This document shows, piece after piece, positions 10,644-54,187 of a stretch of 64,000 nucleotides of DNA. A program made the translations under genes and the position numbers. Each line of letters begins with the position of its first letter. Position 1 is the first letter of the stretch. The stretch spans positions 173,272-237,271 of the forward strand of contig JAQTLZ010000001.1 in the NCBI GenBank assembly GCA_028714635.1, written 5' to 3'. The stretch is from Minisyncoccota bacterium (GTDB lineage: Bacteria; Patescibacteriota; Minisyncoccia; Phycocordibacterales; JAQTLZ01). The notes under the pieces are model-generated. The model was given only the letters and a program-made list of their open reading frames with translations, was not told the DNA's origin and did no database searches.

Positions 10644-11014
10644 TTTTAAAACAAAAACAAGGATTCATCGCTCTTATATCCACCATCGTCATCTCGGTGG
10701 TCTTGCTTCTTGTTGTGAGCACGGCGAGCTTAACCGGGTTTTATGGGCGCTCTGATATTTTGGATTCGGAACTCAAGGAGCGGACAAATGCTCTCGCCGA
10801 AGCTTGCGTGGACAAAGCAATTTTGTATGTAGCAGATGGTTCGGCTCATACTTACCCGGAGCTTGTGTCTGTCAGCACTGACAAGTGTTATATAGATTCT
10901 ATAAGTGCCGGGGTCATTAAAACTCACGCGCTTTACAGCAGTTTCCGAACCAATTTGCAAGTCACTATAAATACTGCGAATTTCTCAGTTTTTTCTTGGG
11001 AAGAAGTGCCTTAG
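10640..11014 (+). CDS. pseudopilin-like small protein
   Basis: N-terminus KQKQG|FIALISTIVISVVLLL; 124 aa; translationally coupled to the upstream gene. Confidence 0.4.
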   Translation: MILKQKQGFIALISTIVISVVLLLVVSTASLTGFYGRSDILDSELKERTNALAEACVDKAILYVADGSAHTYPELVSVSTDKCYIDSISAGVIKTHALYSSFRTNLQVTINTANFSVFSWEEVP

Positions 11015-39877: not shown

Positions 39878-39964
39878 ATTTGAACTGTGAACCCATTGCG
39901 TGGCTTTCAGAACTTACTAAACAGAGACAGTATATCGGTTTAGCAGTCGAAAAGCTTGAAGCAC

Positions 39965-40639
39965 TTATGGCTTCTTAGGTCCTTTACCAACCAATCTCGC
40001 AAATGATTTTGCGATTGGTTCACCTTTATGAAAGACAAAAGTTCCTTCAACACCAAGTTCTTCTCTAATATCCCAGTAAAATCTTTCTATGCGGTTCGCT
40101 ATCTTCTTTGTAAAACGTGGGTCCACTTGAAAAATACCGTTAATATGGACGAAGCCATTCTCGTGGATATTTAGTTTTGTATTGAAGTGACCAACCTGAT
40201 TTCCTCTGGCACGGACTATCTGGTTTATTGATGCTTTTATACTATCCAGTCTTTTCTGGTAACGCTTACGCTTCTTTTCATCTTTGATGTGGTCAGTCAT
40301 CGTATAGAGCGATGATGTCTGCCTGTTTTCATCGAGAATTGTACCGAGAATGACAATCGCATCTCGTGAATAGACATCAACCATCGAAATAATAATGGTT
40401 AGACTTCGCTTCGGCTCATCTTCAGCAAAGTCATCTTTGTGTTTGCCAAGATACAGAATGAGGTCGGCTTGGTCTCGTAGACGATTGAGACAATCATAAA
40501 CATAATCACTTATGTTTCGTATCTTTCTTGTTTCGTCTATTACTGGTTTCTTTTTTGATTTCATATAGGTGAGGGTTTTGCTTCTTGTCTGCCCTGAGAA
40601 GTATTTGGAACGCTCCAACAATCCTATCTCTTTCTTCAT
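39965..40639 (-). CDS. hypothetical protein (last gene of the R-M/helicase operon)
   Basis: 224-aa ORF, basic, no recognised motif. Confidence 0.35.
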   Translation of the reverse strand: MKKEIGLLERSKYFSGQTRSKTLTYMKSKKKPVIDETRKIRNISDYVYDCLNRLRDQADLILYLGKHKDDFAEDEPKRSLTIIISMVDVYSRDAIVILGTILDENRQTSSLYTMTDHIKDEKKRKRYQKRLDSIKASINQIVRARGNQVGHFNTKLNIHENGFVHINGIFQVDPRFTKKIANRIERFYWDIREELGVEGTFVFHKGEPIAKSFARLVGKGPKKP

Positions 40640-40659
40640 TGGTCCAGTTCGGGACTTTA

Positions 40660-41142
40660 TTATTTTTTACTACCATTGATTTCCTTTATCATTTTCCAGC
40701 TCAATTCTTCGACCGTACCTAATTCATCCACAAAAAAGAGATACAGGTTCAATTTATCCATCACATCAAACGGCATCTTTCGTATGACCATTTTTCTGAA
40801 TGATGTAGGAAAAGCAACTCCGTATTTGTAGCCATACTTGTAACCTCTTGCTCCATTACGGTGCATTCTTGTCAGTATCTGTCCCAGTGCAGAGTTGAAG
40901 CTACTACTCTGGCTCCCTGAAGGGTTTATAACCTTTATTGAGGGGTCTCCTTTGGCTTCTATAAGCCAGTATCGTGCAAAGTTATTGTTTCGGACTTTTA
41001 TATCAACACCTTGCTCCCACAACTCCTTACTAGTTAGTGATTTGCTCCAGCCGTTTAGCTCAAGATGTCTAATGACAGACTTTTGTACAAAATCCTCTGT
41101 GATTATCTGTCTTTCTTTTTTGGTTGGTTTAGGGGTAATCAT
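40660..41142 (-). CDS. small PD-(D/E)xK-like nuclease-fold protein
   Basis: GVDIKV...WLIEAKG fits D...(E)xK restriction-endonuclease-like core; 160 aa from Met at 41142 (ORF opens at 41163 with GTG). Confidence 0.4.
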   Translation of the reverse strand: MITPKPTKKERQIITEDFVQKSVIRHLELNGWSKSLTSKELWEQGVDIKVRNNNFARYWLIEAKGDPSIKVINPSGSQSSSFNSALGQILTRMHRNGARGYKYGYKYGVAFPTSFRKMVIRKMPFDVMDKLNLYLFFVDELGTVEELSWKMIKEINGSKK

Positions 41143-41147
41143 AGAAT

Positions 41148-41171
41148 GGTTCACAACGTTCACATATTCAC
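41148..41171 (-). promoter_or_regulatory. triple GTGAA(C/T) direct repeat immediately upstream of the nuclease gene start
   Basis: Gene orientation: GTGAATATGTGAACGTTGTGAACCATTCTATG; 9-bp phasing. Confidence 0.45.
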
Positions 41172-42703
41172 TATGCGTTTATTTCTTCGATAAATCTCGA
41201 AGCTTTTCCTTTCCATAGTCGTGAACGTACATCAAACTTGAAGTCATCTTTGTTCACTGTGTTCACGTGCTTTCCTTCAATACTGATACTTGAGATGAGA
41301 TGCAGGGCTTTCTTTGCTCTTGTCATACCCACATAGAAAAGTCTTCGTTGGCTCTCAATAGTGTCGTTTCCTTTGGCACGATTTGGTATAACACCTTCAA
41401 TAAGACCAATCATAAACACGTGCTCCGCACCAAGTCCTTTCGACTTATGTATAGACATTATGTTTACTCGTTTTTCCACATCTTCCTCAATGAGCACGAA
41501 TAGGTTTTCAAGCTTTTCGTCTTCGGTATCACCCTCAGCATTGTTGTAGAAATCTGCTAGGTCTAGGAAATAAGGCTCCTGAAGTGCCGTATCAATATCT
41601 ACATATGTTGCTTTAGCTTCATTTGGAAGTTTGCTTGCGACCACACCAAATAGCTCTGCAAAGTCCTGTCCACTGGCATAGTGTTTCTTGATGGTCTCGT
41701 AGAGCTTCTTTCTTGATGACAAAACATTGTATCCAATCAATGCGAGATTGAGGTACTTATGCTTACCAAAAAGACTTCTCAGTACCCACGATTTCCTAAT
41801 GATTTCGGGCTCTACTTTAGCAACAAAATAGTTCTTGTAGTCGATACCAGAACCATCAAGTCGGTTAGTGAGGTTCTCCACGAGAAATCTCACAGGACTG
41901 AGTATCAGAACCTTCTCGTCAGTTGAAGCTCCAATGACCTTCTGGACCTCATCCAAGATATAGTCTGCCGTGTTGGTGTTTGAAGGAAACTGTTTTTGTA
42001 CAATAGTCCCAGCTTTACCTGTCTTCTCCCATTTTTTGTCTACTCGTTTTGTGTTGTTCTTTATCAGTTTCGTAGCACTATCTACCACACTGTCAGGACA
42101 TCTGTAGCACTTGTGTTCGTGCTCAAGCTTCTCGTGAGAAGGGTCTGAGTGGAGCGAAATAATCTTGTCGTTATCGGCATCTTTGAAGTCGTAGATACAC
42201 TGGTCATCATCACCAAGAATATAACTCTCGCTCATTACTTCTACGAGCAAATCAATGAGTTCTTGCTCATTTTTATTGAAGTCTTGGTATTCATCCACTA
42301 TCAATACGGAGTACGCTGAAAGCTTATCTTTGAGGTATGCAGGGTTTGATTTTGCATAGCTGACAAAGCGAGCAATCATCTGGTCAAAAGTTGTTGCTGA
42401 GAAGAAATTGCACAAATCATCGAACCCTATAGAAGTGCTTTTTGAGATTTGAGAAAGCTCACTAATCTCTAGCATATCGAGAACGTGCCTACTTTTGTCG
42501 TGATTGTATTTCACAGCAAACTTATGAAGGGTCATACAATTCTCAGGACTGACACCAATCGGTATCAGGGACTTCTTCAGGTCCTCAACAGTTGCGTTGG
42601 TAAAAGAGATAATCAAAACACCATCAAGATTTGGCTTTGATTGAATGATGTTCTTTATGTTTGTTGTTTTACCAGTCCCTGGTCCTGCGAGTAGTATTTT
42701 CAT
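41171..42703 (-). CDS. UvrD/PcrA-like superfamily 1 DNA helicase (short form)
   Basis: Walker A GPGTGKTT, motif II VDEYQD, motif III GDDDQCIY, motif V HKSKGLGAEHVF, motif VI YVGMTRAKKAL; 510 aa. Confidence 0.8.
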   Translation of the reverse strand: MKILLAGPGTGKTTNIKNIIQSKPNLDGVLIISFTNATVEDLKKSLIPIGVSPENCMTLHKFAVKYNHDKSRHVLDMLEISELSQISKSTSIGFDDLCNFFSATTFDQMIARFVSYAKSNPAYLKDKLSAYSVLIVDEYQDFNKNEQELIDLLVEVMSESYILGDDDQCIYDFKDADNDKIISLHSDPSHEKLEHEHKCYRCPDSVVDSATKLIKNNTKRVDKKWEKTGKAGTIVQKQFPSNTNTADYILDEVQKVIGASTDEKVLILSPVRFLVENLTNRLDGSGIDYKNYFVAKVEPEIIRKSWVLRSLFGKHKYLNLALIGYNVLSSRKKLYETIKKHYASGQDFAELFGVVASKLPNEAKATYVDIDTALQEPYFLDLADFYNNAEGDTEDEKLENLFVLIEEDVEKRVNIMSIHKSKGLGAEHVFMIGLIEGVIPNRAKGNDTIESQRRLFYVGMTRAKKALHLISSISIEGKHVNTVNKDDFKFDVRSRLWKGKASRFIEEINA

Positions 42704-42706
42704 AAT

Positions 42707-42730
42707 GGTTCACGATGTTCACTCATTCAC
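42707..42730 (-). promoter_or_regulatory. triple GTGAA(C/T) direct repeat immediately upstream of the helicase start
   Basis: Gene orientation: GTGAATGAGTGAACATCGTGAACCATTATG. Confidence 0.45.
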
Positions 42731-42733
42731 CAA

Positions 42734-45418
42734 CTACTTTGAGAATAGTCGGACCAGCTCATCGAAGTTCTTGGCTGGATTTTTTTCATAGTCTTCTTGT
42801 TTGACGTATAGAGCCTTGTAAACAACTCTACTTTGTCGAGCGTTTACGTCCTCACACCACTTTTGAAGTCTTTCAAACTTGATTTTGTCGTCCTCTTCTT
42901 CACGACCCTTTGTTTCAATGATGTACACCTGTTTCTCATCAACCTTCACAAAGAAGTCTGGGTAATAATTAGCGATAAAGCCTTCAGCATTCTTGTATTC
43001 AATACGGAGAGCAGTCGCTTCCTTGTTTTGGAAGTTCTTCGCAAACGAGATAGTGTCATCGCATTTTTCAAGGAAAGCAGAGAACTCAAGCTCAAAGTTA
43101 CTATCTCCCACAATTCGGTTGAATACGGATTTTTGAGGAATGAGGAACGCCTTATCATTTACCACAAAAGGGCGTGCATCACTTACCTTGATGTAGTTCT
43201 TGATTTCGGTATCACCCTTGTCTTGGACCGTTAGCTCGTTGATTGATTTCTTGAAGCCGTCTTTGATGAGTTTTATGTACTCAACTTCGGATAGGTTACG
43301 AAGAACATTCAGGTCTGTGAGCTCAACCTTGCTCTCAAACATATGGTTCTCAACAAAATCCTTCACTTTGCCAAAGAGGATGTCATAGCATCCGAATAGA
43401 CGCATTTCTCGCATTATTGCCTGTGCAAAGAAGCCAACGACACTCTGGTAGTTTGGTTCAATATCACCACTCAAAATCGTAGTGTGATGGACCGCTTCAG
43501 CAACCACATCTTTGAAGACAATTTCTCGTTTCTCTTGCTCACTGAACGTCTTTACCTGCACCTTCTCGTTTCCAAAAGTAGAAACATCCAAGTCAGCAAG
43601 ATTTTTGTACTCTCGCTGTATTCTGGCGGTCATTACAGGGATTTCAATATCCAGTTTTCCAATGTCCTTCTTGGTGTTCTCTTTATCAATCTCAATCACC
43701 ATAGGAGAAATAGGTTTTGAACCAGACCCCATCAAACGCTTTTCAAGGAGTACGCCTTCACCCTTGATACTCTCTACGAAGTCCATAAAGGCTGGAGTAC
43801 CGATAACACTCACGTATTCATCAATGTCATCTCTTCCAAAATACATTCTTCGGAGACCTCTACCAAGCGTTTGCTCAGGAAGGATTTTACTATCTGAAGC
43901 GTATGGTCGGAGACCAACAATAGTAGTTACGTTTTTTACGTCCCATCCTTCTTTGAGCATCATTACAGACACGATGACCTTGTAAGGACTTTCCCAGCTA
44001 TCAATCTCGTTCGATTGCTTTCGGAGTTGTTCAAGTTCTTCTTGATTTCTACCTGTTGTACTCTCAGAAATCTCACCACTCTTGTTCGTGTGAATAGTAA
44101 GGACCGCACCCTTTAGTTCAGGGTAGTTCATTTCAAGATACTGAGCGACATCATCACAGTTCTTGGTATCGTCAGTCATTATGAAGAGAAGGGACTTCTT
44201 GTTTGTAGGTAGGAGTTGTTCGTATGTCTTTCTCCATTCTTCAACACCAAGGTGAATGTGGTCTCTCCACTTCTCTGTGAATACAACGCTTTGACCTTCT
44301 TTGAGCTTTCCTCGACTTGCTTCGTCTGGCACAACTGGTTGCTTCACAACACGCTGGTGAATTGCTTCAACCAACGGATAGTCAGAAATAGTCTGTACGA
44401 AAATCGCACCTTTGTTGTTTTTAGGTGTTGCTGTTACGTCTAATTGGAGAGAAAGACCGCCACCTTTTTGCTTGAGTTTATTATCAATATCACGAATAGA
44501 TTTGAGCCACGCATTTTCTTCGTGGATATGGTGAGCCTCGTCATTGATAACAATAAGCTCATCAATATCTCGGACTACCATTCCTAAATCAACAGTTCCT
44601 TGATTTGTTTTAGTAACTGGCTTATCTCCAAGGAAATACTCAGAAGCATCCTCATCGTCTGCATCGTAATCTTTTACATCGCTTTCAAACACTCGGTGAA
44701 TGTTAGTGAGGAAAATGTTTCCAGTATCAGAGACGTTTTTGAGCTCATCTTGGAGGTGAAGTGTAATCTGGAAATCATCCTGCCAGTTTTGACCCATATA
44801 ACCGTTATCAGGAAGAACAGGGTCCAAGAAGAATATCTTGTTTCCTTCAAAGTCATTCTTGATACGCTCGAACACGATTACGTTTGGTGCGATGAGTAGG
44901 AAGTTCTTTGCGAGATTTGAGCCTTCTTCGTAGAGTTTATGGAAATACGCCCACGCAATCACCAAGCTCATTACCTTGGTCTTACCAGCTCCTGTAGCCA
45001 TCTTGATGACAAATCGGAGCCAATCCTCGGTGAACATCTGAGGGCTCAAAACGCCTGTAGAGTTGTAGCGTATCAAATCGTACTTATCCTTCACCTGAGC
45101 GACCTCGTAGAGCCATACAACGGTCTCCAGAGCCTCTCTTTGAGAGAAGTAGTATCGGAAGTTGTAGGATGTACCGTCCTGATTGTAGAGAGTGTGTTCT
45201 TCTTTGAACCACCACGTCAAAAGTGCTTTTGAGGTATCGCTAGCACCCTCATAATTATTATCTCGCCACGCTTTTACTTGCTTACGAAGTTCTGCAACGA
45301 GAGGAGGAATGAGCTTCTCAAATCCTTTTTCTCGAAGGTCCTCATCAGCAGGAAACCACCTAATTTCAGGATTGAGGATTGCGTATGGGTCTTTTGGAAA
45401 ATCTTTGTGTAGTGCCAT
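42734..45418 (-). CDS. res: type III restriction enzyme Res subunit (SF2 helicase + PD-(D/E)xK endonuclease)
   Basis: Walker A MATGAGKTKV, DEAHH motif II, helicase motif VI QTLGRGLRR, C-terminal YYPDF...IIETKG nuclease motif; 894 aa; directly follows mod. Confidence 0.85.
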   Translation of the reverse strand: MALHKDFPKDPYAILNPEIRWFPADEDLREKGFEKLIPPLVAELRKQVKAWRDNNYEGASDTSKALLTWWFKEEHTLYNQDGTSYNFRYYFSQREALETVVWLYEVAQVKDKYDLIRYNSTGVLSPQMFTEDWLRFVIKMATGAGKTKVMSLVIAWAYFHKLYEEGSNLAKNFLLIAPNVIVFERIKNDFEGNKIFFLDPVLPDNGYMGQNWQDDFQITLHLQDELKNVSDTGNIFLTNIHRVFESDVKDYDADDEDASEYFLGDKPVTKTNQGTVDLGMVVRDIDELIVINDEAHHIHEENAWLKSIRDIDNKLKQKGGGLSLQLDVTATPKNNKGAIFVQTISDYPLVEAIHQRVVKQPVVPDEASRGKLKEGQSVVFTEKWRDHIHLGVEEWRKTYEQLLPTNKKSLLFIMTDDTKNCDDVAQYLEMNYPELKGAVLTIHTNKSGEISESTTGRNQEELEQLRKQSNEIDSWESPYKVIVSVMMLKEGWDVKNVTTIVGLRPYASDSKILPEQTLGRGLRRMYFGRDDIDEYVSVIGTPAFMDFVESIKGEGVLLEKRLMGSGSKPISPMVIEIDKENTKKDIGKLDIEIPVMTARIQREYKNLADLDVSTFGNEKVQVKTFSEQEKREIVFKDVVAEAVHHTTILSGDIEPNYQSVVGFFAQAIMREMRLFGCYDILFGKVKDFVENHMFESKVELTDLNVLRNLSEVEYIKLIKDGFKKSINELTVQDKGDTEIKNYIKVSDARPFVVNDKAFLIPQKSVFNRIVGDSNFELEFSAFLEKCDDTISFAKNFQNKEATALRIEYKNAEGFIANYYPDFFVKVDEKQVYIIETKGREEEDDKIKFERLQKWCEDVNARQSRVVYKALYVKQEDYEKNPAKNFDELVRLFSK

Positions 45419-45422
45419 AGGA

Positions 45423-47582
45423 TTATAGTTTTACATCAATCACTCTGGTAGTGTCGTTACCGAAGATGTCCACGACCTTTACTGCAACTTTGTAGTCTCC
45501 CTTTGGAAGCTCTTTTGGTGCAGACTTGAACTCAAGATTTCTATTCTTCTTTGTACGGAAACTTTGCCATTCGTTGTCAAAGATATAGTCTCCAGTCCAA
45601 ACATCTTTTTCTTCACCGTCCTCAATAACCTTGATGATTTCTTTACGGTCCGCAAAGTTGTAATCAACCGCCCAGTAATCAATCCAGTCGCTCCACTTTT
45701 TTGTGAGGACCTCTCGTGATACAAGTTCGGTATCTTTGTCCTTTGTTACTTTCAATACCTGACCGTTTTCGATGATTACTTTTGACCTTCCAGCCTTTAG
45801 TTCTTCATCAATTGCACCATTGTCTTGGTTGTAGAAAACAGAGAAGTCAGTAATCTCAATTGAGAGTTCTTTCATTGAACCTCTACCAGTAATAATTGGT
45901 TTGATGTCGATGTAGGCAACGTCATAGAAGTTCACCTGACCACGCTCAACTGCACGCTTATCAAACACTTCACGTGGAATGATTTTGAAAGCAACATCAA
46001 TACCTTCGTCAGCATACTCACCAAAGTTCATTCCCATTTCGTAATCGAAACCGAGAACATCAATTTTAGTAAGATTTTTCTCCTTACACTCACTAACAAT
46101 TTCACGAATAAACTTTGAAGATACAGGAAGGTTGATAGGACCGATTGCTACCAATCTGTCTCGCTTCTTTCCTACAACGTGTGCGAAGCTCTCAACAGGT
46201 TCAGCTTTGTAGGCAGAGAGAATAAGCTTGATGAACTCTTTTTCTTTTCGGTCTGCTTGTTTTGCTTTCTCTTCAGCACGTAAGTCATCGTTAGTATTTA
46301 GGAAGCTTTCACGCTCGTATTTACCAACGTTCAATATCTCAAATGCACGGAAATCTTTTCCTGCTTTTTTGAGTTCACGTTGAATACCAACCATTCGCTT
46401 TCGAGAGGTGTGTATACCGAACTTACCTAGGTCAGTGCCTATCCACTTACGACCAAGTTTTTCAGCCGTTGCAATCGTTGTGCCTGAGCCAACAAAAAAG
46501 TCAGCTACTAAATCTCCCTCATTTGAGGAGGATTTTATAATTCTCTCTAGGAGGGCAGATGGTTTTTGTGTCGGGTAGTCTAGTCGCTCTTTTGACATCG
46601 AGTTTTCGTAAGGGATTTCCCACACATCGTTCGGTATCATTCCTTCCTCTGGATAGTAGGTTCTCCATTTACCTGCATCAAATCTTTTTCTACACACTTT
46701 TCCATTATCATCTTTATCCCTAAAGTGAGATTTTATGTATTCATCAGAGTAAGGAACACGAGCTCCTTTTTCGTTGAAGTACGTTTTGTTTGATTTTCCA
46801 TAGTAAAAAATAGTGTCGTGCTTTTGTGCAAACCTATCATCTGGTCTTCCTAGTGTTGAGTAATACCAAATAATTTCATTCCTGAAGTTTTCTTTTCCAA
46901 ATATCTCATCGAGCGACATTCTCATAAAAGCACTAACTCGCCAATCACAATGCACATAAATACTTCCATCTTCGGCGAGTAGCTCGTGCATCAACTTCAG
47001 ACGCTCGTAAATCATTGCAATAAAGCTGTCTGCACCTTTACCCCACGTATCACGATAGGCAATCTCTTCAATTACAGAGGGCTTCTTTGTGAAGCTGTCA
47101 TTTTCTTCACCAATTGAAATGTTCATTGAAAAGTCAGCTCCCACATCAAAAGGAGGGTCAATATAGATAAGTTTGAGACCCCCTTGAGCTTCAATCTCTT
47201 TTCGCATTGGACCGTTCTTGAGAGATGAGAGAATGAGTTTGTTATCTCCCCAGATTAGTTTGTTGGTCCAGCCAGTAATTTGCTTACCAGAGAAATCAAA
47301 CAACGTACCTTTGTCGCCAAACTCTTTACCTTCTCGTGGTTCATCAATCTGCTCAATTACTTGGAATGGAAGAACTACGTTTGTAACTTCGTTAGTCTTT
47401 CCATTCCAAACAAGCTCGACTTCACGGTCATCTTTGAAGAGAAGGAAGCGGTACTTTTCTGGAAGGGGTTTTCCAGCTTCGAGGAACTTCACAATGTCTC
47501 GCTTTTCGTTGTCAGAAAGATAGAGTGAGCCACTCTTGGTCTGTCCGTTCTTTTGTTGTTCGTTGTCTTTTTTCATATACAT
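45423..47582 (-). CDS. mod: type III R-M DNA methyltransferase Mod (beta-class N6A/N4C MTase)
   Basis: Motif IV IYIDPPFD precedes motif I FFVGSGTTIATAEKLGRKWIGTD (beta-class order); 719 aa. Confidence 0.85.
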   Translation of the reverse strand: MYMKKDNEQQKNGQTKSGSLYLSDNEKRDIVKFLEAGKPLPEKYRFLLFKDDREVELVWNGKTNEVTNVVLPFQVIEQIDEPREGKEFGDKGTLFDFSGKQITGWTNKLIWGDNKLILSSLKNGPMRKEIEAQGGLKLIYIDPPFDVGADFSMNISIGEENDSFTKKPSVIEEIAYRDTWGKGADSFIAMIYERLKLMHELLAEDGSIYVHCDWRVSAFMRMSLDEIFGKENFRNEIIWYYSTLGRPDDRFAQKHDTIFYYGKSNKTYFNEKGARVPYSDEYIKSHFRDKDDNGKVCRKRFDAGKWRTYYPEEGMIPNDVWEIPYENSMSKERLDYPTQKPSALLERIIKSSSNEGDLVADFFVGSGTTIATAEKLGRKWIGTDLGKFGIHTSRKRMVGIQRELKKAGKDFRAFEILNVGKYERESFLNTNDDLRAEEKAKQADRKEKEFIKLILSAYKAEPVESFAHVVGKKRDRLVAIGPINLPVSSKFIREIVSECKEKNLTKIDVLGFDYEMGMNFGEYADEGIDVAFKIIPREVFDKRAVERGQVNFYDVAYIDIKPIITGRGSMKELSIEITDFSVFYNQDNGAIDEELKAGRSKVIIENGQVLKVTKDKDTELVSREVLTKKWSDWIDYWAVDYNFADRKEIIKVIEDGEEKDVWTGDYIFDNEWQSFRTKKNRNLEFKSAPKELPKGDYKVAVKVVDIFGNDTTRVIDVKL

Positions 47583-47602
47583 TTGGTTGATTAGCTAATA
47601 AG

Positions 47603-47821
47603 TTACTTTGGCGACTGGACAAACTTTTCGAGGTCCTCTTTTTTATATCTTCTTGCTCTACGTTCACCAATTCGTATGGCAGGAAGTATGCCTTTCTTAT
47701 CCCATTGCCGAAGCGTGTTGGGATGACACTTGAGATAAGCAGATGCTTCTTCCAAAGTGAGAAGTTCTGGCAAATCCCCATCATTTTGCGGTGTTTTTTT
47801 CGTTGATTTCATACCTAACAT
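47603..47821 (-). CDS. small helix-turn-helix DNA-binding protein (excisionase/MerR-like)
   Basis: LTLEEASAYLKCHPNTLRQWDKKGILPAIRIGERRARRYKKEDLEKFV resembles Xis/AlpA-type HTH; 72 aa; leads the mod-res operon. Confidence 0.5.
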   Translation of the reverse strand: MLGMKSTKKTPQNDGDLPELLTLEEASAYLKCHPNTLRQWDKKGILPAIRIGERRARRYKKEDLEKFVQSPK

Positions 47822-47843
47822 TTGATAACATTATTATACATAA

Positions 47844-47878
47844 CCTTCACAACGTTCACAATGTGCACGGACCGTGAA
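47844..47878. promoter_or_regulatory. GTGAAC-type repeat cluster in the divergent intergenic region between the HTH gene and the 431-aa gene
   Basis: ccTTCACaacGTTCACaatGTGCACggaccGTGAAaacc; adjacent TATGTATAAT (minus-strand sense) could be the HTH promoter. Confidence 0.45.
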
Positions 47879-47889
47879 AACCAATGTAA

Positions 47890-49185
47890 ATGTATATGAG
47901 TAGCCTCAAAACCACTGAGAAGAAGATACTTGAAAAGCTTTTCAATATGGAAGGTGGCTATGTGCTGAGTTTTACTGATAAATCATTCGAGAAGTTCCTC
48001 AAAGATGACTTCAATATCTCGGTCTACAGTGAGATGTACGACTTGGACTTTCCAAGTAAATCAAAAGCAAACCGACTACGTGGTATCTGGAGTGTAGAAG
48101 ATGATGCGAAAGTTGGAGGTATTATTTTGGAACTTGTTGAGTGTGCGGAGACCGACATTTTGACATCAGGCAAAGAGATGTCTGCTATTGAAAAGGACCT
48201 TACTTCAAAGGCACGTGATATAGGGATACGCTTACTGTTTACAGAAATTGCTGACGGAAGCACCAAACCAGAAGTTCAGAAGCTGAAGACTAAGGCTGAA
48301 CTCATAAAGGGTTTCAATAGTATTGATTTCAAGGAGATGGAGCCTAACAAGCGTATCTATCTGCTAAAGGTTCTGTTCTCTTACTACGATGCGATTATTC
48401 GTGCATACAGAGGCTCAGGATTGTTCTATCTCACATCAGGCATTGATGACCTCAATGACTATTTCAAGGTCCTCAGAAAGCGAATGATTGAGCTACTCGA
48501 TACATACGACACTTTTGTTGAAATGAAGAAGTCGCCCACTTATACGGACTTCATTGAGCCTGTAACAAGCCTTTACGCAAGTCAGGACTATCTTGAAGTC
48601 GTGTGGGAAGAAAGCGTGCTCCCTATGCTCATCAATTTCCGTGAAGACATAGCTGATAGAGACCTGTTTGATAATCAGTCAGAAGTTCACAAAGTTCACG
48701 TTGAGGTGTTGAGCTTTTTGGATGCTATCTCAAAAGAGATTGAGGCTCTCAATGGGTATATGAGCCAGCAAACAAAGAAGTTCTACGATACTGACCTACC
48801 AGCAGAGAAAGAAAGGCTATCCAATATCTTTCCATCCGAAGAGCTATACATCACAAAACAAGGTGATGATTTTCGATACAAAGGAAAGCTACTGAACCTC
48901 TCGAAGAAAGCCGACTACTACAAAGTTTTTTGTGCTTTATACGCACTCCTTCCGCAAGGTGGAGAAATTGAATACAAGCCTCTTATAACTGAAATCAAAA
49001 GCAGAATACCGAAGACCAAAGCGAAGTCTGACGAAGAAATGCGAAAGCTTATACAAGGTAATCTCACTGATAAAAGCAACGGCTTTATCCGCTATGCAAA
49101 ACTGCCAAATACGGAGGACAATTCCAAGCCACTCATCGAAGTTATAAAGGGCTTTGGAGTGCGTTTCAACAATAAAGCTGGCTAA
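47890..49185 (+). CDS. hypothetical protein
   Basis: 431 aa, acidic, begins MYM; no recognised motif. Confidence 0.4.
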   Translation: MYMSSLKTTEKKILEKLFNMEGGYVLSFTDKSFEKFLKDDFNISVYSEMYDLDFPSKSKANRLRGIWSVEDDAKVGGIILELVECAETDILTSGKEMSAIEKDLTSKARDIGIRLLFTEIADGSTKPEVQKLKTKAELIKGFNSIDFKEMEPNKRIYLLKVLFSYYDAIIRAYRGSGLFYLTSGIDDLNDYFKVLRKRMIELLDTYDTFVEMKKSPTYTDFIEPVTSLYASQDYLEVVWEESVLPMLINFREDIADRDLFDNQSEVHKVHVEVLSFLDAISKEIEALNGYMSQQTKKFYDTDLPAEKERLSNIFPSEELYITKQGDDFRYKGKLLNLSKKADYYKVFCALYALLPQGGEIEYKPLITEIKSRIPKTKAKSDEEMRKLIQGNLTDKSNGFIRYAKLPNTEDNSKPLIEVIKGFGVRFNNKAG

Positions 49186-49224
49186 TCCTGAAACTTCCTG
49201 AGAATAGATAAGTTCTCCTGACTA

Positions 49225-49259
49225 AAACACCTTTGAAATAAAGGGTGTTTTTTCGTTTT
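49225..49259 (+). terminator. rho-independent terminator
   Basis: aaacaccttt gaaata aagggtgttt then ttttcgtttt. Confidence 0.75.
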
Positions 49260-49361
49260 CCTGAATGTTCAGGAAGTACGCAGAACAATCTCAAAAAGCA
49301 AAAATCAATCTATAGAACTTTTCTTGGCGGAAGTTCACTTACTCATAAAACACCAATGTAA

Positions 49362-49664
49362 ATGATTATGAAAAGAAACAATGAGAGCGATGAGCTCCAC
49401 AACGTCCCTTTGGACGATTACAAAAACTATTACTACTCGAACGATATTGATGTCGCATCAACCCTCATATGTAAAGGATATGAATTGGTAGACATCACAC
49501 CGATAAGCCACAACAAGGCTACCTTCGTATTCAAAAATCATCCTGCAATTACGGATGCGGTTGAAGGCTTTTGGAGCAATCGAATTGAGGTCCGACCTCT
49601 TGAGTTCGCTAACGTCAGAAAAAATCTGAAATCACGCATCTTCGGAATGCGGAAAACTTACTAG
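49362..49664 (+). CDS. small hypothetical protein typical of mobile-element replication modules
   Basis: 100 aa; YYSNDIDVASTLICKGYELVDITPISHNKATFVFKNHPAITDAVEGFWSNRIEV resembles a small family I recall from phage/ICE loci; low certainty. Confidence 0.35.
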   Translation: MIMKRNNESDELHNVPLDDYKNYYYSNDIDVASTLICKGYELVDITPISHNKATFVFKNHPAITDAVEGFWSNRIEVRPLEFANVRKNLKSRIFGMRKTY

Positions 49665-49676
49665 CCCATAAATGAA

Positions 49677-51032
49677 ATGTATATGCAAAACAAAGAAGAA
49701 AGACAAGAAAAAATTATCCTGAAGACAAGTATCACAACGCCAAACGAGCTCTACGAAATGGTGTTTGACCGAAGTGAAAACAAAACCTCTTTCATAAAAA
49801 TTGATAGAGATGGAAAAATTGAGACCCTGCTGGAAGAGGTGGAAATTGGCGGAAGAAAGTATCGACCACTTCCATCTGATTACAACCTCGTGGACAAGAA
49901 CGTCATCTTGTTTCCATCACTTGCTACACCTTATGAAAGCGAGGAAGAAATACTCACTGAAGTACAGCATTTTATCCATAAACACCTAGACATCTCTGAG
50001 GTATTCGAGCGTATAGCTACTTACTACGTTCTGTTTACGTGGCTATTCGACAAGTTCAATGAGGTCCCGTATCTACGAGCAATTGGTGATTTTGGAAGCG
50101 GTAAATCACGCTTTCTCCAAGCTATCGGAATACTCTGCTACAAGCCTGTATTTACTGGAGGTGCGACTACTCCAAGTCCGATATTCCGCATCATCAATGA
50201 GGTAAAAGGAACGCTCATCATAGACGAAGCTGACTTCAAGTTCTCGGATATGACATCAGAGATTGTGAAGATATTGAACACTGGATACCAGAAAGGAATG
50301 TCCGTGCTTCGTTCTGAAGGAAAAGGGACCTTTGAAGTAAAAGCCTACGATGTATTTTGTCCGAAAATTGTAGCCACTCGTGAGACCTTCGCTGACAAGG
50401 CACTTGAGAGCCGATTTCTCGTTGAAGAAATGGGTGCTGGAAAGTTGCGTACCGACATCCCACGCACTCTTGATGAGAGCTTTTATGAGGGTGCTGAATT
50501 GATACGAAACAAGCTCCTGATGTGGCGACTGAAGAACTACTTTGAGCCGATAGAACGTAGGCACGATTTGATTGAAGGAATACATCCACGACTGAACCAA
50601 ATCGTTATGCCACTTTTATCCATCATCAAAGACGAGAGTATCAGAAATCAGCTCAAGACTTTCATTGTTCAATACAACGCTGAACTGGTAGCAGACCGTG
50701 GTCTTTCGTGGGAAAGCGACATTGTTTTTGCAGTCCTGAAATTGGAGTACGAATTGAAAGGAAACGAGCTAACAGTCAAACAGATTACTGACGAAGTGAA
50801 CAAGGAAATAGATGTAAGCGATGACACCCTACAGGCTCGAAAAGTCGGGTGGTATTTACGAGCAAAACTACAACTCAAGCCTTATAAAACTCGAAAAGGA
50901 TACGTACTTTCTTTCAAGGAAAACAGGAAGCGATTGGATATGTGGAAGGAACGCTTTGGTATCACCGATGCGGATATTCGTGGTGAACAAGTGAATGTCG
51001 TGAACGATGCTGAAGCTATTACCAATAACTAA
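49677..51032 (+). CDS. P-loop NTPase, probable replication/primase-associated protein (VirE/D5-like)
   Basis: Walker A AIGDFGSGKS, Walker B LIIDEADF, about 130 aa N-terminal domain before the P-loop; 451 aa. Confidence 0.45.
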   Translation: MYMQNKEERQEKIILKTSITTPNELYEMVFDRSENKTSFIKIDRDGKIETLLEEVEIGGRKYRPLPSDYNLVDKNVILFPSLATPYESEEEILTEVQHFIHKHLDISEVFERIATYYVLFTWLFDKFNEVPYLRAIGDFGSGKSRFLQAIGILCYKPVFTGGATTPSPIFRIINEVKGTLIIDEADFKFSDMTSEIVKILNTGYQKGMSVLRSEGKGTFEVKAYDVFCPKIVATRETFADKALESRFLVEEMGAGKLRTDIPRTLDESFYEGAELIRNKLLMWRLKNYFEPIERRHDLIEGIHPRLNQIVMPLLSIIKDESIRNQLKTFIVQYNAELVADRGLSWESDIVFAVLKLEYELKGNELTVKQITDEVNKEIDVSDDTLQARKVGWYLRAKLQLKPYKTRKGYVLSFKENRKRLDMWKERFGITDADIRGEQVNVVNDAEAITNN

Positions 51033-51041
51033 ATCATTCTT

Positions 51042-51554
51042 ATGGAAAACAAGTCAAAAGGTGGTCCAAAAACAACTGAAGGAAAGGCAATCTCGAAGTA
51101 CAACGCAATCAAACACGGATTGCTCTCAAAAGAGGTGCTTGTTGATGGTGAAGATGAGAAGACACTCCTAGAACTCAATCAAAGCGTACACGACCAATTT
51201 CAGCCAGTAGGACCGATAGAAAAGATGCTGGTAGACCGTGTTGTATCAAATCTCTGGAGACTACGAAGAGCTGTCTTTGTCGAGACTGCAACGATGAACT
51301 GGTATCGAGCTGACATCAATCTCTTTCCAATTGGACAGGATGATGAGCAACAAGAACGACAGAACGTAAAGAATATGTTGAGCAACGAAAGTATCGAGAC
51401 CATTCTTCGATACGAGACAACCATTGAAAGAAGCATCTTCAGGGCTCTTCACGAGCTTGAGCGTATACAGGCTAAAAGAAACGGGAAAGACGTTTCAATT
51501 CCAGCCGTGGTCGATGTAAACGTGGATAGTTCGTTTCGCAAAAATGACCAATAA
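51042..51554 (+). CDS. hypothetical protein
   Basis: 170 aa, helical, no motif. Confidence 0.35.
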   Translation: MENKSKGGPKTTEGKAISKYNAIKHGLLSKEVLVDGEDEKTLLELNQSVHDQFQPVGPIEKMLVDRVVSNLWRLRRAVFVETATMNWYRADINLFPIGQDDEQQERQNVKNMLSNESIETILRYETTIERSIFRALHELERIQAKRNGKDVSIPAVVDVNVDSSFRKNDQ

Positions 51555-51569
51555 CAGTGAGGTTCTCAA

Positions 51570-52211
51570 TTGATTTCGGAAGATAAAAACATTATGAGTA
51601 AAACAGAAGCAGATGACTGCAAGAAAATAGAAATATGGTGGCTCCTGCGAGACATCAAGGAGAAAGGTGGTTACAAATACACCACTGTTTCTTGGGGTGA
51701 AAATGGTTCACACGGAAGCGTATCTGTGCAGGTATCTGTATGGGACGAAGAAAAATACGCTCGCTTTATTTACTCGCAAACTGACCATTCTACAGGTGAA
51801 AAGAAGGACTTCGACTACAAGGTCCCCATCATCACCACACCTTGTCATCTAGGTGGAGAACGATATTGGTTCAAGTGCTCTCTATTCAAAAACGGAGAGC
51901 AATGTGGACGACGTGTTGGTGTGCTCTACAAAGATGGTGATTGGTTCGGTTGTCGTCATTGTTACGAGCTCACCTACAAATCAAAAAACGTAAACAAGGG
52001 GTACAAACACTATCCGATGTTTCGAGTTCTTGAGCTAAGGATGGAAATAGACAGGCTCGAAGAGAAGTCACATCGACACACATACAACGGAAAACCAACC
52101 AAGAAGCGGATGCGACTAGAAAAGCTTTATCGAGAAGCAATGCTCCAGCATCGTGCTTTTTACGAGACTGAAAAAGGTCTCAAAGTCAGCAAAAAAGGTC
52201 GAGAGTTCTAA
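51570..52211 (+). CDS. hypothetical protein with Cys-rich zinc-ribbon-like region
   Basis: CHLGGERYWFKC...CGRRVG...CRHC pattern; 213 aa. Confidence 0.35.
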   Translation: MISEDKNIMSKTEADDCKKIEIWWLLRDIKEKGGYKYTTVSWGENGSHGSVSVQVSVWDEEKYARFIYSQTDHSTGEKKDFDYKVPIITTPCHLGGERYWFKCSLFKNGEQCGRRVGVLYKDGDWFGCRHCYELTYKSKNVNKGYKHYPMFRVLELRMEIDRLEEKSHRHTYNGKPTKKRMRLEKLYREAMLQHRAFYETEKGLKVSKKGREF

Positions 52212-52225
52212 TCAAAAATGTTATT

Positions 52226-52468
52226 ATGAGTAAGTTACACGAAAGCCTGAATAATGCTCCGCAACCGCAACCTTCCAAGGAGCAGGACCAGCTTTTGTGT
52301 GAAGGTCCAAAGCACCTGCTCTCGAAAGATACCCTTGATGCTTTGGAAGAACTCGGTGGTGTTCTCAGGAACATTCACAGGAGAATGGTATCTGAAGGAT
52401 ACGAAATTGTAGATGGAAACATCCGCAAAGTAGTACCGCAAAATGTAAATGTATATGAAAAAGCCTAA
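52226..52468 (+). CDS. hypothetical small protein
   Basis: 80 aa; overlaps the recombinase start by 20 nt. Confidence 0.3.
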   Translation: MSKLHESLNNAPQPQPSKEQDQLLCEGPKHLLSKDTLDALEELGGVLRNIHRRMVSEGYEIVDGNIRKVVPQNVNVYEKA

Positions 52469-54146
52469 TATCAAAACTGAAAAAGATTTGATTGCCGAAA
52501 TACTCTCTGGTAAATACCGTGATTGTCATTTGATATATAACAGAAAGAGTACGGACGAAGCTGACAACCAGAAGAACTCCATTTCATATCAAAAGATAGA
52601 GAACACTCGTTTTGCACATCGAGAAAAACTTTCCATAGCACAAATCACCATCAAAGGTTTCTCTGCTGACGGCATCATTTCCGAAAAGCACTCAGGGTTT
52701 ACTGAGGACGATGATATAAACATTACCGATGACGGTTTGGTTCAATACAGAATTGATAGACCAAAGTTCCAGAGAATGCTTCAGTTCGTTAGCCAAGGGT
52801 ATTTCAAAGGTGTCGTATGTCTTTGTTGGGACCGTATCAGTAGAAATAAAGGAGATGACACTCTTATCCGAAAGCTTATGCGTAAGGGTGTAGATTTTCG
52901 CTTTGTATACGCTAAATACGAGAAGACAAGTTCAGGTGCTCTTCATATGGATATTGATGGAATGTTCTCTCAACATCACTCACGTGTTACAAGTGAGAAA
53001 GTAACGCTCACCATCCGTAACTCACGAGAGAAAGGCATATGTACTTACAGAGCACCAATCGGCTATCTCAATCAAGGGAAAATGGAAGATAAACCACTAG
53101 ACCCATTCCGTGCACCCATAATCAAGCAGATGTATGAGTATTACGCTACAGGAGACTGGAGCCTGTCAGACATTGCTCGCTTTGCAAATGACCAAGGTTT
53201 TACCACAGTACCGATGAGGCGTAGAAGGACAAAAGAAGAAATGCTCGCTGAGGAAGACGAGTTTGAGGAAATAGAAAAGACCTCACGTCCTGTAAACGAA
53301 AACCATATCAGCAGAATACTTACTAATCGCTTTTATACAGGAAGGACCCTCAACTCAGAAGGTAAATATATCCAAAGTATCAGCCACGTAGCTATCGTAA
53401 GCGATGAGCTCTTTGATGACGTTCAGGCTGTGCTCAAAAAGAAGAAAGTGAGCGTTCACTATACGGAAAAACTCGACCAGCCACTTCGAGGTGTTGTACG
53501 TTGTGCACATTGTGAACGTGTATACACACCATACATAAAGAAAGGTATTCAATACTACAATTCACGCTGTACAAAAGACTGTAAGAATACGGACAAGAAC
53601 TTGAGTTTTGAGAAGATTGATAAGAAAATCAGTGGACTTATTACAGGTCTGCATTTTACCGATGACGAAATAGAACAGATGGATGCTCGTGCAGGTACAG
53701 AGATTGCGTTGCTCGAAGAGAAGCGTCATAAAACACTCGACCAAGTAGAGAGAAAAAAGAAAAAGATACGAGAAGACCTTGCATACCTACGCTCGAACAA
53801 AATACCTCTCTTGAAGGCTGGAGTGTATACACCTGAGAGTTATGTTACCGAGGAAACAAAACTTGATAGTGAACTTTCTTTGTTGCAGAGCGAAGAGCAA
53901 GCATCAGACATCGCAATGCACGAGACAATGAAAGAGGTTCAAAAACTTTCAGAACTCGTCAAAAACGTTGCTCTATATTATCAATTCGCAAAACCACACG
54001 AAAAAGAGCAGATTGTTCGTGTAATCTTTTCAGAACTTTCTATTGCTCAAGATGTGTTGCAATTCAAGGTCAAAAAAGGATTTGAAGCCTTTGAAAACCG
54101 TTTCCTTGCTATTTGTGACCCTACAGAGAATCGAACTCTGATTTGA
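52449..54146 (+). CDS. large serine recombinase
   Basis: Resolvase catalytic domain with Ser in YNRKSTDEADNQ and CLCWDRISRN (RxSR-like) motif, recombinase domain, C-terminal Cys4 zinc ribbon CAHCERV...CTKDCK; 565 aa. Confidence 0.85.
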   Translation: MYMKKPNIKTEKDLIAEILSGKYRDCHLIYNRKSTDEADNQKNSISYQKIENTRFAHREKLSIAQITIKGFSADGIISEKHSGFTEDDDINITDDGLVQYRIDRPKFQRMLQFVSQGYFKGVVCLCWDRISRNKGDDTLIRKLMRKGVDFRFVYAKYEKTSSGALHMDIDGMFSQHHSRVTSEKVTLTIRNSREKGICTYRAPIGYLNQGKMEDKPLDPFRAPIIKQMYEYYATGDWSLSDIARFANDQGFTTVPMRRRRTKEEMLAEEDEFEEIEKTSRPVNENHISRILTNRFYTGRTLNSEGKYIQSISHVAIVSDELFDDVQAVLKKKKVSVHYTEKLDQPLRGVVRCAHCERVYTPYIKKGIQYYNSRCTKDCKNTDKNLSFEKIDKKISGLITGLHFTDDEIEQMDARAGTEIALLEEKRHKTLDQVERKKKKIREDLAYLRSNKIPLLKAGVYTPESYVTEETKLDSELSLLQSEEQASDIAMHETMKEVQKLSELVKNVALYYQFAKPHEKEQIVRVIFSELSIAQDVLQFKVKKGFEAFENRFLAICDPTENRTLI

Positions 54147-54187
54147 GCCTTGAGAAGGCTCCGTCCTGACCGTTAGACGATAGGGCC
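54116..54187 (-). tRNA. tRNA-Glu (anticodon CUC); 3' part overlaps the recombinase gene end; one acceptor-stem mismatch
   Basis: Reverse complement GGCCCTATCGTCTAACGGTCAGGACGGAGCCTTCTCAAGGCTCAAATCAGAGTTCGATTCTCTGTAGGGGTC; D-arm and anticodon loop TTCTCAA closely resemble bacterial tRNA-Glu; acceptor pair 2:71 is G:G. Confidence 0.55.

Follow-up and report, generated by a model that had tools for sequence, protein, structure and literature searches.

A serine integrase at the edge of a patescibacterial tRNA-Glu gene whose attachment site splits its own gene

The window analyzed here is a stretch of 64,000 nucleotides of contig JAQTLZ010000001.1 (Minisyncoccota bacterium, assembly GCA_028714635.1). 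Between ftsI and a tRNA-Glu gene, window positions 39886–54118 very probably form an integrative, non-viral mobile element of about 14,228 bp with the anatomy described below. This high confidence applies to the recombination anatomy alone and covers neither the function of the C-terminal tail of the recombinase nor the role of the small protein g80 encoded beside it. The element carries a large serine recombinase (LSR) that targets the edge of the tRNA gene and whose attachment (att) site splits its own gene, an arrangement that is well supported in its anatomy. The attP site lies inside the LSR open reading frame (ORF), about 30 codons before the stop, and the crossover falls in codon 556 of approximately 585. 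Integration leaves the body of the LSR at the right end of the element and the last 30 codons at the left end, beside ftsI. Excision would rebuild an LSR of approximately 585 aa, compared with 565 aa in the integrated form.

Junctions of the Insertion

The ftsI gene (PF00905, PF03717) ends at 39877 and is followed by 13 ORFs up to and including the recombinase. An earlier interpretation made from the letters alone, the sequence-only reading, had placed an integrated mobile element here, with 13 genes after ftsI and a large serine recombinase as the last. The ORFs and the domains of the recombinase (52449–54146, plus strand; PF00239 and PF07508) agree with this, and the insertion itself is borne out by an empty site and a second copy.

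The empty site, which that reading had suggested looking for, was reached through FtsI homologues. It is found in the assembly GCA_028711065.1 (L084), the carrier of the closest FtsI homologue (94 % identity). The gene order there is alr, mraZ, rsmH, ftsL, ftsI, tRNA-Glu(CUC), M23 peptidase, a 255-aa ORF, PDT, and aminotransferase, which is the order of the window minus the 14 kb. The junction reads ...GGATAGATAGATTTGAACTGTGA|CCCTACCGGG...; the shorter form of this attB is ...ATTTGAACTGTGA|CCCTAC..., also given as ...GATAGATTTGAACTGTGA|CCCTACC.... Left of the bar, a single substitution within the stop codon of ftsI (A for G at 39876) separates it from window 39870–39890. On the right, colinearity with the window starts at 54119, with no difference up to and including CCCTAC. 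A search of metagenome contigs with an exact 29-mer of the predicted attB gave no match, because the tRNA of the relative differs in the T-stem.

The second copy is the Logan contig SRR6231203_12645 (L091; 14,355 bp), which is 99.93 % identical to window 39879–54143 (14,265 nt). Its left flank differs from that of the window (...CACTTTTTGATG|TGTGAACCC), and on the right it has a different tRNA-Glu-type sequence (TTTGTGACC|TCACGGGGAATCGAACCCCGATT). Identity with the window extends from 39886 to 54120, and the tRNA sequence differs from 54121 onward.

A circular relative was recovered by searching for the predicted circular junction, which returned the single metagenome contig Ga0315274_10013035 (L083; 11,834 bp). 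The two ends of this contig repeat each other directly over 127 bp, as is typical of an assembled circle, and the circle thus measures 11.7 kb. It carries an uninterrupted 584-aa recombinase that is 83 % identical to the window LSR, together with an unbroken attP (...CTTGCTATTTGTGACCCCATTGCGTGGCTTTCAGAAC...). The genes follow the order of the window element, circularly permuted. The rejoined junctions predicted for the window element itself are ...CGTTTCCTTGCTATTTGTGAACCCATTGCGTGGCTTTCAGAAC... for attP and ...GGTAGATTTGAACTGTGACCCTACAGAGAATCGAAC... for attB.

The agreement of these three comparisons gives the size of approximately 14,228 bp and places the crossover within TGTGA, present at 39886–39890 (attL core) and 54114–54118 (attR core). 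This is the sole stretch common to attL, attR, and the attB of the empty site. The attR core is set by the L084 junction and by the end of L091 identity at 54120. The B arm, host DNA to the left of the crossover (39852–39885), contains the ftsI stop codon and ATTTGAAC and is colinear with L084; the 19 nt adjoining the core, compared with L084, are ATAGATTTGAACTGTGACC.

In another relative (L085; FtsI 83 % identity), the tRNA-Glu(CUC) gene is on the other strand (3200–3480), and a 17-nt repeat of the tRNA-Glu 3′ end (CCCGGTAGAGTCACAA) occurs again approximately 150 nt downstream. This repeat may be the scar of a different integration event.

The tRNA-Glu Gene

The tRNA-Glu(CUC) gene lies on the minus strand at 54115–54187 (ARAGORN), is intact, and serves as the B′ arm. 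The stop codon of the recombinase is at 54144–54146, so that the ORF overlaps the T-arm and the 3′ acceptor strand of the tRNA by 32 nt, as had been noticed from the sequence alone. An overlap of this kind would suit a classical tRNA-reconstituting island, an arrangement usual for tyrosine-integrase islands (PMC7192596). In such an island, attP holds the 3′ half of the tRNA gene, the last codons of the recombinase are owned by the element, and a mismatch in the acceptor stem reflects imperfect replacement. The sequence-only reading had proposed this, citing a G:G mismatch at acceptor pair 2:71. The ARAGORN drawing gives a G:U wobble at this pair. The acceptor ends (5′ GGCCC and 3′ GGGTCAC) are the same in the window and in L084, and they are also present in most of the tRNA-Glu genes adjoining homologous recombinases in the related loci checked. 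As the element-free L084 has the same ends, the G2:U71 pair is native to the host and does not mark a repair. An identical tRNA 3′ end in an element-free strain is what the sequence-only reading had itself named as speaking against its proposal. There is also no displaced tRNA fragment at the left end, attL and attR having TGTGA alone in common, and in L091 the same element is followed, from 54121, by another tRNA sequence. We give this explanation almost no credence, as it is refuted already by the L084 and L091 junctions. The insertion by a serine recombinase thus stands from the first interpretation, and the mechanism proposed there does not.

The tRNA is host DNA. Codons 1–555 of the LSR belong to the element; the last ten (CDPTENRTLI*) start in the shared core, which holds the first two, and the rest are host tRNA read in antisense. 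The overlap arises because the ORF, cut by integration, reads on into the tRNA gene. The crossover corresponds to tRNA positions of about 71–75, the extreme 3′ end. Since attP also carries GTGA, the element gives at most a few identical tRNA bases and a new 3′ trailer. The GTGAAC repeat that had been reported at the left edge does not belong to the repeat set of the element. It is the attL junction itself, where host TTGAACTGTGA, a sequence that the empty site also has, meets ACCC from the element.

The Split Recombinase Gene

The integrated LSR gene (52449–54146, plus strand) encodes 565 aa. The detached last 30 codons and the stop are found at 39886–39978 on the plus strand, where they form the P′ arm. 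This segment is in frame and translates as C-E-P-I-A-W-L-S-E-L-T-K-Q-R-Q-Y-I-G-L-A-V-E-K-L-E-A-L-M-A-S-*. Homologues that do not adjoin a tRNA gene carry such a tail contiguously (...CDPTxWLSEL..., followed by about 25 more residues), as does L083. The window tail has its homologous counterparts in 18 intact homologues and in L083, where they form contiguous C-termini. In the integrated state, a TTG codon located 3 nt after the ftsI stop opens a 32-codon ORF (39880–39978) that holds the whole detached tail. That the tail peptide is made separately from this ORF would be pure speculation.

Judged at the level of sequence, the protein belongs to the large serine recombinases by every criterion applied. 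The catalytic domain (PF00239) was matched at 6.9e-15 and the recombinase domain (PF07508) at 1.1e-13. Residues R32, S34, and D36 of the YNRKSTDE motif are invariant in 29 LSR sequences, and so are the zinc-ribbon cysteines C352, C355, C374, and C378. Searches against solved structures by sequence were less informative: the intact homologue P0040 (75 % identical to the LSR) gave no match in the Protein Data Bank (PDB) with phmmer, and the LSR profile gave marginal matches only (TP901-1 catalytic domain, E 0.007). The AlphaFold2 (AF2) model of P0040 has a mean pLDDT of 75.7 and the full serine-integrase architecture. Foldseek matched it to the SPbeta, phiC31, Bxb1, and LI integrases with E values from 2e-14 to 2e-10, the range for full-length SPbeta, phiC31, and Bxb1 integrases being 2e-14 to 2e-11. 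The model has long helices at residues 421–511, as expected of the coiled coil embedded in the zinc-ribbon domain. The crossover maps to a low-confidence linker (550–561) ahead of a C-terminal helix (560–582).

Attachment Sites

Consensus sequences of the att sites were derived from 28 attR and 24 attL junctions. The P arm (54081–54113) lies within the LSR coding sequence, and its 28-locus consensus is TTTGAa.CcTTTgAaAACCGtTTt..tgCT.TTT. The consensus of the P′ arm is GTGACCc.at.GcgTGGCTTTCaGAACT and that of the B′ arm is GTGACCCtACgGAGAATCGAACTC. No conservation was observed in the B arms of the 24 related junctions. For attB, the tRNA half appears to be all that the enzyme needs.

The complement of the P arm from −15 to −25 (CGGTTTTCAAA) mirrors the P′ arm from +15 to +25 (TGGCTTTCAGA) at 8 of 11 positions. 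The last base of a TC(A)GAAC motif is at +27 in P′ (TCAGAAC) and at +22 in B′ (TCGAAC), which is a shift of 5 bp. A 5-bp register shift of the zinc-ribbon domain on attB relative to attP is known from the phiC31 structure paper. Short attP and attB sites, a minimal core, a dyad-symmetric attP, and an attB half-site that is 5 bp closer would together be expected of a serine integrase. In B′, the motif belongs to the T-loop and T-stem of the tRNA, a possible reason why relatives can retarget other tRNAs. A central dinucleotide at T|G, as the dyad axis would place it, was at first considered. This assignment was relaxed to a position within GTGA/TGTGA in view of a mismatch at position −1 in five relatives.

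Homologous Loci

Homologues of the LSR fall into 893 clusters at E < 1e-10. We surveyed 80 genomic loci in which the recombinase is 54–98 % identical to that of the window. The 3′ end of the recombinase gene overlaps a tRNA gene in 43 of these. The overlapped gene is a minus-strand tRNA-Glu in 38 loci (24 UUC, 14 CUC), tRNA-Ala in three, tRNA-Val in one, and tRNA-Ser in one. An intact WLSEL tail is present in 18 loci, mostly from Bacteroidota, Verrucomicrobiota, Acidobacteriota, and Kordiimonas. A further 13 loci have other tails, and the 3′ end is uninformative in six. In approximately 20 of the tRNA-linked loci, a detached tail segment is found on the same strand 5–10 kb upstream, preceded by unrelated host sequence. 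The splitting of the gene is a property of the family and not of the window locus alone. Two recombinases that are 98 % identical to the window LSR (L003 and L004, from other metagenome-assembled genomes (MAGs)) are located at tRNA-Glu(UUC) beside tRNA-Ser and tRNA-Val, which indicates that the enzyme uses both tRNA-Glu isoacceptor genes.

Several loci show arrangements of their own. Chromosomal homologues with uninterrupted tails, 55–57 % identical to the window LSR, are found in Kordiimonas aestuarii JCM 17742 (L052), Leadbetterella sp. DM7 (L063), Dokdonia pacifica DSM 25597 (L066), and a complete Bacteroidia chromosome (L064). Extra copies of the tail occur 3′ of the recombinase gene in L028, L055, L065, and L072. 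The recombinases of L017, L039, and L059 have a third kind of tail (CEPILPRVEHY*, CEEILTLARTYFEQN*, and CEPSLPEMEHLGKY..., with ends near 7213, 11713, and 11803), and the tRNA-Glu gene, 5–9 kb downstream, has unrelated DNA in front of it. In these three loci, other elements, with P′ arms of a different kind, seem to have entered between the recombinase and the tRNA. In L089 (8444–13721), an intact-tail homologue (65 % identical) is flanked by a TraG/TrwB-like coupling protein and a GajA-like nuclease of the OLD family on a 288-kb contig that also carries RHS-repeat genes. From this setting, the family also rides on mobilizable, defense-carrying elements in other genomic contexts.

Arrays of tail segments were also observed. 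In L024 (3362–6218; also L020, 12–2185), three to four copies of the segment (82-nt repeats) are present upstream of one recombinase at tRNA-Glu. The four segments of L024 bound single-gene units of 605–1194 bp, two of which end in a conserved 53-nt sequence. These arrays look like stacked mini-cassettes mobilized by the serine recombinase. At the left junction of L047 (2500–2600 versus 10680–10760), 80 nt of the recombinase 3′ end are duplicated exactly and joined to the tail, which gives an attP-like site. Such a duplicate would be expected if a newer element had entered between an older, mostly deleted element and the tRNA. The L024 units and the L047 remnant suggest that new arrivals insert beside the tRNA and that older elements are pushed outward, which fits the non-conserved B arm. 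The stacking of elements and single-gene mini-cassettes beside the tRNA, if it occurs, would be a serine-recombinase analogue of an integron.

Cargo and Core Genes

Relatives differ in the left half of the element, which in the window holds a type III restriction–modification (R-M) system, a UvrD/GajB-like helicase, and two unassigned ORFs, all on the minus strand. The first ORF, g224 (39965–40639), has no family match and is absent from related loci. The second, g167/160 (40660–41142; probable ATG at 41142), has GTGAAC repeats just upstream and likewise no family match. The superfamily 1 helicase (41171–42703; PF00580, PF13361) matches GajB in PADLOC at 1.5e-41. Neither of the ORFs flanking it matches GajA or any PADLOC model, and a Gabija system is not assigned. 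The restriction subunit Res (42734–45418; PF04851; PADLOC REase_III 1.4e-21) scores 271 bits against the NCBIfam model restr_BPTD_3080, under the curated cut-off of 800. It adjoins the methyltransferase Mod (45423–47582; PF01555 1.8e-48; PADLOC MTase_III 2.6e-118), and a Mod gene adjoining a helicase–nuclease Res gene is the arrangement of a type III R-M system.

Next to Mod is a helix-turn-helix (HTH) protein of the HTH_17/excisionase family (47603–47821, minus strand), which scores 38 bits against TIGR01764 (cut-off 28.8) and matches mad1 in PADLOC. Among relatives, this gene occurs only where Mod occurs. As it travels with Mod, it is more likely to be a controller of the R-M system than a recombination directionality factor (RDF), and the latter role was judged unlikely on the same ground. 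The sequence-only reading had listed the HTH protein, Mod, Res, the UvrD-like helicase, and the P-loop protein correctly; its PD-(D/E)xK-like protein (g167) has no database support.

The right half is on the plus strand. It begins with the unassigned g431 (47890–49185), which is present in seven related loci and has no family or PDB match. The core module, conserved across the Patescibacteria clade, consists of the DUF5659 protein, g451, g170, g213, g80, and the LSR. The DUF5659 protein (49362–49664; PF18903 3.2e-10) is found in 16 related loci, g170 (51042–51554) in 15, and g213 (51570–52211) in 26. The small protein g80 (52226–52468) overlaps the LSR start and is beside the LSR in 62 loci, with other phyla included. 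Pfam searches of g80, g170, g213, g224, and g167 at E values up to 5 gave noise only.

The P-loop NTPase g451 (49677–51032) has the Walker A motif GSGKS and the Walker B motif IIDEAD. It has 1483 homologues, the best 120 of which are 78–100 % identical. No match to solved structures was obtained. Two relatives (P0353 and P0358; about 80 % identical, 734–739 aa) have extra N-terminal Prim-Pol and PriCT_1 domains, which the window copy is without. These fusions point to replication of the free form, and g451 is probably a replication module.

The element has a repeat vocabulary of its own, as the sequence-only reading had stated: GTGAAC occurs at 1.69 per kb in the element and at 0.26 per kb in the rest of the window. 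The tandem form GTGAAC-N3-GTGAAC, with a period of 9 bp, is found inside the element only. Copies on the minus strand at 41149–41171, 41252–41266, 42708–42730, and 48685–48699, together with those below, place the repeats ahead of g167, UvrD, and g431 as well as at the g451 3′ end. A GTGAAC-N3-GTGAA repeat (47845–47859, minus strand) followed by TATAAT is located in the divergent intergenic region between the HTH gene and g431. The motif is in promoter-like positions in relatives as well. A triple repeat (50983–51005, plus strand) at the 3′ end of g451 is kept in L083, L007, L008, L012, L013, L016, L034, and L037. The repeats are candidate operators or iterons. Mod, g431, g451, and the LSR all start with ATGTATATG (“MYM”) and have AAATG-type leaders before it (47574–47582, 47890–47898, 49677–49685, and 52449–52457). 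This motif, conserved at the starts of the four genes, may be a common promoter or translation signal.

Nature of the Element

The element is probably replicative as well as integrative, carries defense genes, and is not a prophage. No virion, terminase, packaging, or lysis genes were matched in it, and the PHROG matches are limited to the integrase and the excisionase-type HTH protein. No relatives were found in IMG/VR (scan with the LSR alignment) or in PLSDB and INPHARED (tblastn). None of the 13 ORFs is a tyrosine integrase (PF00589), and the serine recombinase is the sole recombinase. We also considered a prophage or an assembly chimera of the MAG. The excisionase-like HTH protein could be taken in its favor, as could the GC content, which the sequence-only reading had suggested checking and which is slightly below that of the flanks (about 0.40–0.42 versus 0.43–0.47). 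The missing viral genes and viral relatives contradict a prophage. A chimera is contradicted by the same junction architecture in more than 40 independent assemblies and by the presence of the same element in NCBI, ENA, and Logan assemblies. Either origin is thus extremely unlikely.

Window 29630–58743 matches contig JAQTSW010000002.1 (29,114 bp) of GCA_028711105.1, and the genes checked translate identically; the window extends beyond both ends of this contig. The idea that the window consists of concatenated MAG contigs was dropped, since the aminotransferase ORF spans the supposed boundary at 58743. The window thus derives from a longer assembly of this genome or of one nearly identical to it.

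Proposed Mechanism and Role of the Tail

We propose that the LSR binds the dyad-symmetric attP through GGnTTTCA motifs at ±16–25 and would bind the T-arm of the tRNA in a register 5 bp closer to the center, as is typical of attB sites of LSRs. The attP inside the LSR gene would then pair with the tRNA-borne attB, and strands would be exchanged at a dinucleotide within GTGA. Two forms of the enzyme would result, one of 585 aa from the circle and one of 565 aa from the chromosome, and the swap of the C-terminal helix may alter what the enzyme can do in each state. The free circle would replicate by means of g451 and the iteron-like GTGAAC repeats.

The tail is constrained at two levels. The DNA-level constraint is seen in 45 distinct tails: W is encoded by TGG in 45 of 45, the first L (L1) by CTT in 38 of 40, and E3 by GAA in 45 of 45, and TGGCTTTCnGAAC in the P′ arm is conserved as DNA. 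Residues I11, I15, and L18 are conserved as amino acids. I11 is encoded by ATC, ATT, and ATA (15, 9, and 16 tails), I15 also by all three Ile codons, and position 18 is Leu in 39 of 45 tails with six different codons. Hydrophobic residues at positions 11 and 15 had been a condition for entry into the codon-usage set; in unfiltered tails, Ile is found at position 11 in 32 of 40 and at position 15 in 33 of 40. The freedom of synonymous codons at I11, I15, and L18 indicates that the tail is a selected protein feature.

We tentatively prefer a version in which the tail acts as a switch of direction or activity, so that the enzyme integrates at full length and, without its tail, excises together with g80; even so, we hold it to be something short of an even chance. 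Its occurrence beside the LSR in 62 loci puts g80 first among the candidate directionality factors. The stricter form, in which recombination itself rewrites the integrase so that the full-length enzyme integrates only and the tail-less enzyme with g80 excises, would be a self-contained switch with no regulated directionality factor. We regard this form as unlikely.

It is also possible, if rather doubtful, that the swap of the tail has no functional effect. The attP would then overlap a dispensable 3′ end, both forms would be alike, and a separate directionality factor would act. In dozens of loci, the ORF of the integrated copy is uninterrupted as far as the junction, and the strongest conservation in the tail (W-L-S-E) is explained by the DNA-level constraint on the att site, both of which suit this idea. 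The conservation of I11, I15, and L18 as amino acids across phyla speaks against it, as do the defined tail helix predicted by AF2 and the presence of attP inside the ORF throughout the tRNA-targeting clade.

Integration could instead be “suicidal”: a recombinase that has lost its tail would be inactive or unstable, and the element could leave again only with full-length enzyme brought in by a newcomer. Suicidal integrases are defined by an att site within int, and the splitting of the gene has been proposed to block excision (PMC8371274). The tail arrays and remnants beside tRNA genes (L020, L024, and L047) suggest accretion without excision. Only 5 % of the protein is removed, however, beyond the last folded domain, and the near-identical copies at two sites and the circular relative indicate recent mobility. 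A fresh copy entering each host would account for the latter observations as well. On balance, we do not think a suicidal reaction probable.

Several observations weigh against the reading developed here. The circular contig L083 comes from a relative (LSR 83 % identical) and not from the window copy. Many homologues with intact tails are found in large chromosomes, where their mode of integration is unexplained. The tail diverges faster than the body of the enzyme (approximately 55 % versus 88 % identity to L007, the tail compared by eye), which would also suit a tail without effect. The dyad axis is at T|G, yet position −1 differs between attL and attR in L011, L012, L036, L054, and L077, which favors GT or TG, shifted rightward from the axis by one or two bases, as the crossover dinucleotide. 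The AF2 model of g451 is too poor to use (mean pLDDT 62, with the P-loop core below 50). Finally, the part given to g80 in directionality is a candidate role proposed purely from its position.

Relation to Known Systems

The large serine integrases of phages and of integrative and conjugative elements (phiC31, Bxb1, SPbeta SprA, and Listeria A118/LI) have the same domain order (a catalytic domain, a recombinase domain, and a zinc ribbon in which a coiled coil is embedded) and the same catalytic YxRxS serine as the window LSR. Their att sites are likewise short, with dyad symmetry in attP, a 5-bp shift in attB, and a very small common core. The window LSR differs in that its target is the 3′ boundary of a tRNA gene and its attP is inside the ORF, so that the two states encode different C-termini. 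A large isolate-based survey of LSR att sites (Durrant et al., PMC10083194) makes no mention of tRNA.

A parallel in working, though not in family, is with the SSV1-type “suicidal” tyrosine integrases, in which att is also inside the integrase gene and integration partitions the gene. Many SSV1-type elements target tRNA genes. The SSV1-type gene is cut into two large parts, whereas the bacterial serine recombinase of the window loses a 30-residue C-terminal helix. Its ORF is completed by tRNA-antisense codons, and its hosts are Patescibacteria MAGs. The int–att module of suicidal integrases is compact, and these integrases are said to be exclusive to archaea (PMC8371274).

In the integration-dependent immunity of mycobacteriophage BPs, attP is also in a coding sequence and the prophage product has a shorter C-terminus; the C-terminal difference between the prophage and free forms acts as a switch (PMC4557955). 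The split gene of BPs encodes the repressor and its integrase is a tyrosine recombinase, whereas in the window the serine integrase itself is split. The tail of the viral form is an ssrA-like degradation tag. The window tail is an amphipathic-looking helix that ends in ...ALMAS and is not tag-like. The tails of some distant homologues end in AA (L028, ...CPAA; P0082, ...DRAA).

Islander-type tRNA islands and tycheposons share with the window element the location next to a tRNA gene, a tRNA-proximal integrase, defense or adaptive cargo, and tandem accretion. Replication genes are frequent in tycheposons, and an LSR is encoded by 27 of the 937 tycheposons and cryptic elements surveyed. Their attP carries a 3′ fragment of the tRNA, with a direct repeat at the far end, whereas no fragment is carried or displaced in the window. 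A search of the window for a direct repeat of the tRNA 3′ fragment gave TGTGA only, or a 10-mer with two mismatches, so that an Islander-type end is lacking. In engineered Int–gp3 fusions of phiC31, direction is reported to be set by the C-terminal attachment (PMC5737554); such a fusion has been used for cryo-EM work. That fusion is artificial, whereas the C-terminal module of the window LSR would be exchanged naturally by recombination.

We did not find the same arrangement in the literature searched, a search that was incomplete, so that a prior description elsewhere is possible. Nothing relevant was found on Patescibacteria together with serine recombinases. To our knowledge, few mobile elements have been described in Patescibacteria (bacteria of the candidate phyla radiation). 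The family described here, with its 893 LSR clusters, includes anti-phage cargo and near-identical copies in different hosts.

Serine integrases are a main tool for inserting large DNA segments. Their targets have been described as protein-coding or intergenic, whereas the window family targets the 3′ edge of tRNA genes. Copies that are 98–99.9 % identical use both tRNA-Glu isoacceptor genes, and distant members use those of tRNA-Ala, tRNA-Val, and tRNA-Ser. The control of direction is the central question for these enzymes, and a C-terminus that depends on the state of the element would provide a natural test of C-terminal appendages. With att sites defined to about 50 bp and cultured relatives available, these hypotheses are directly testable.

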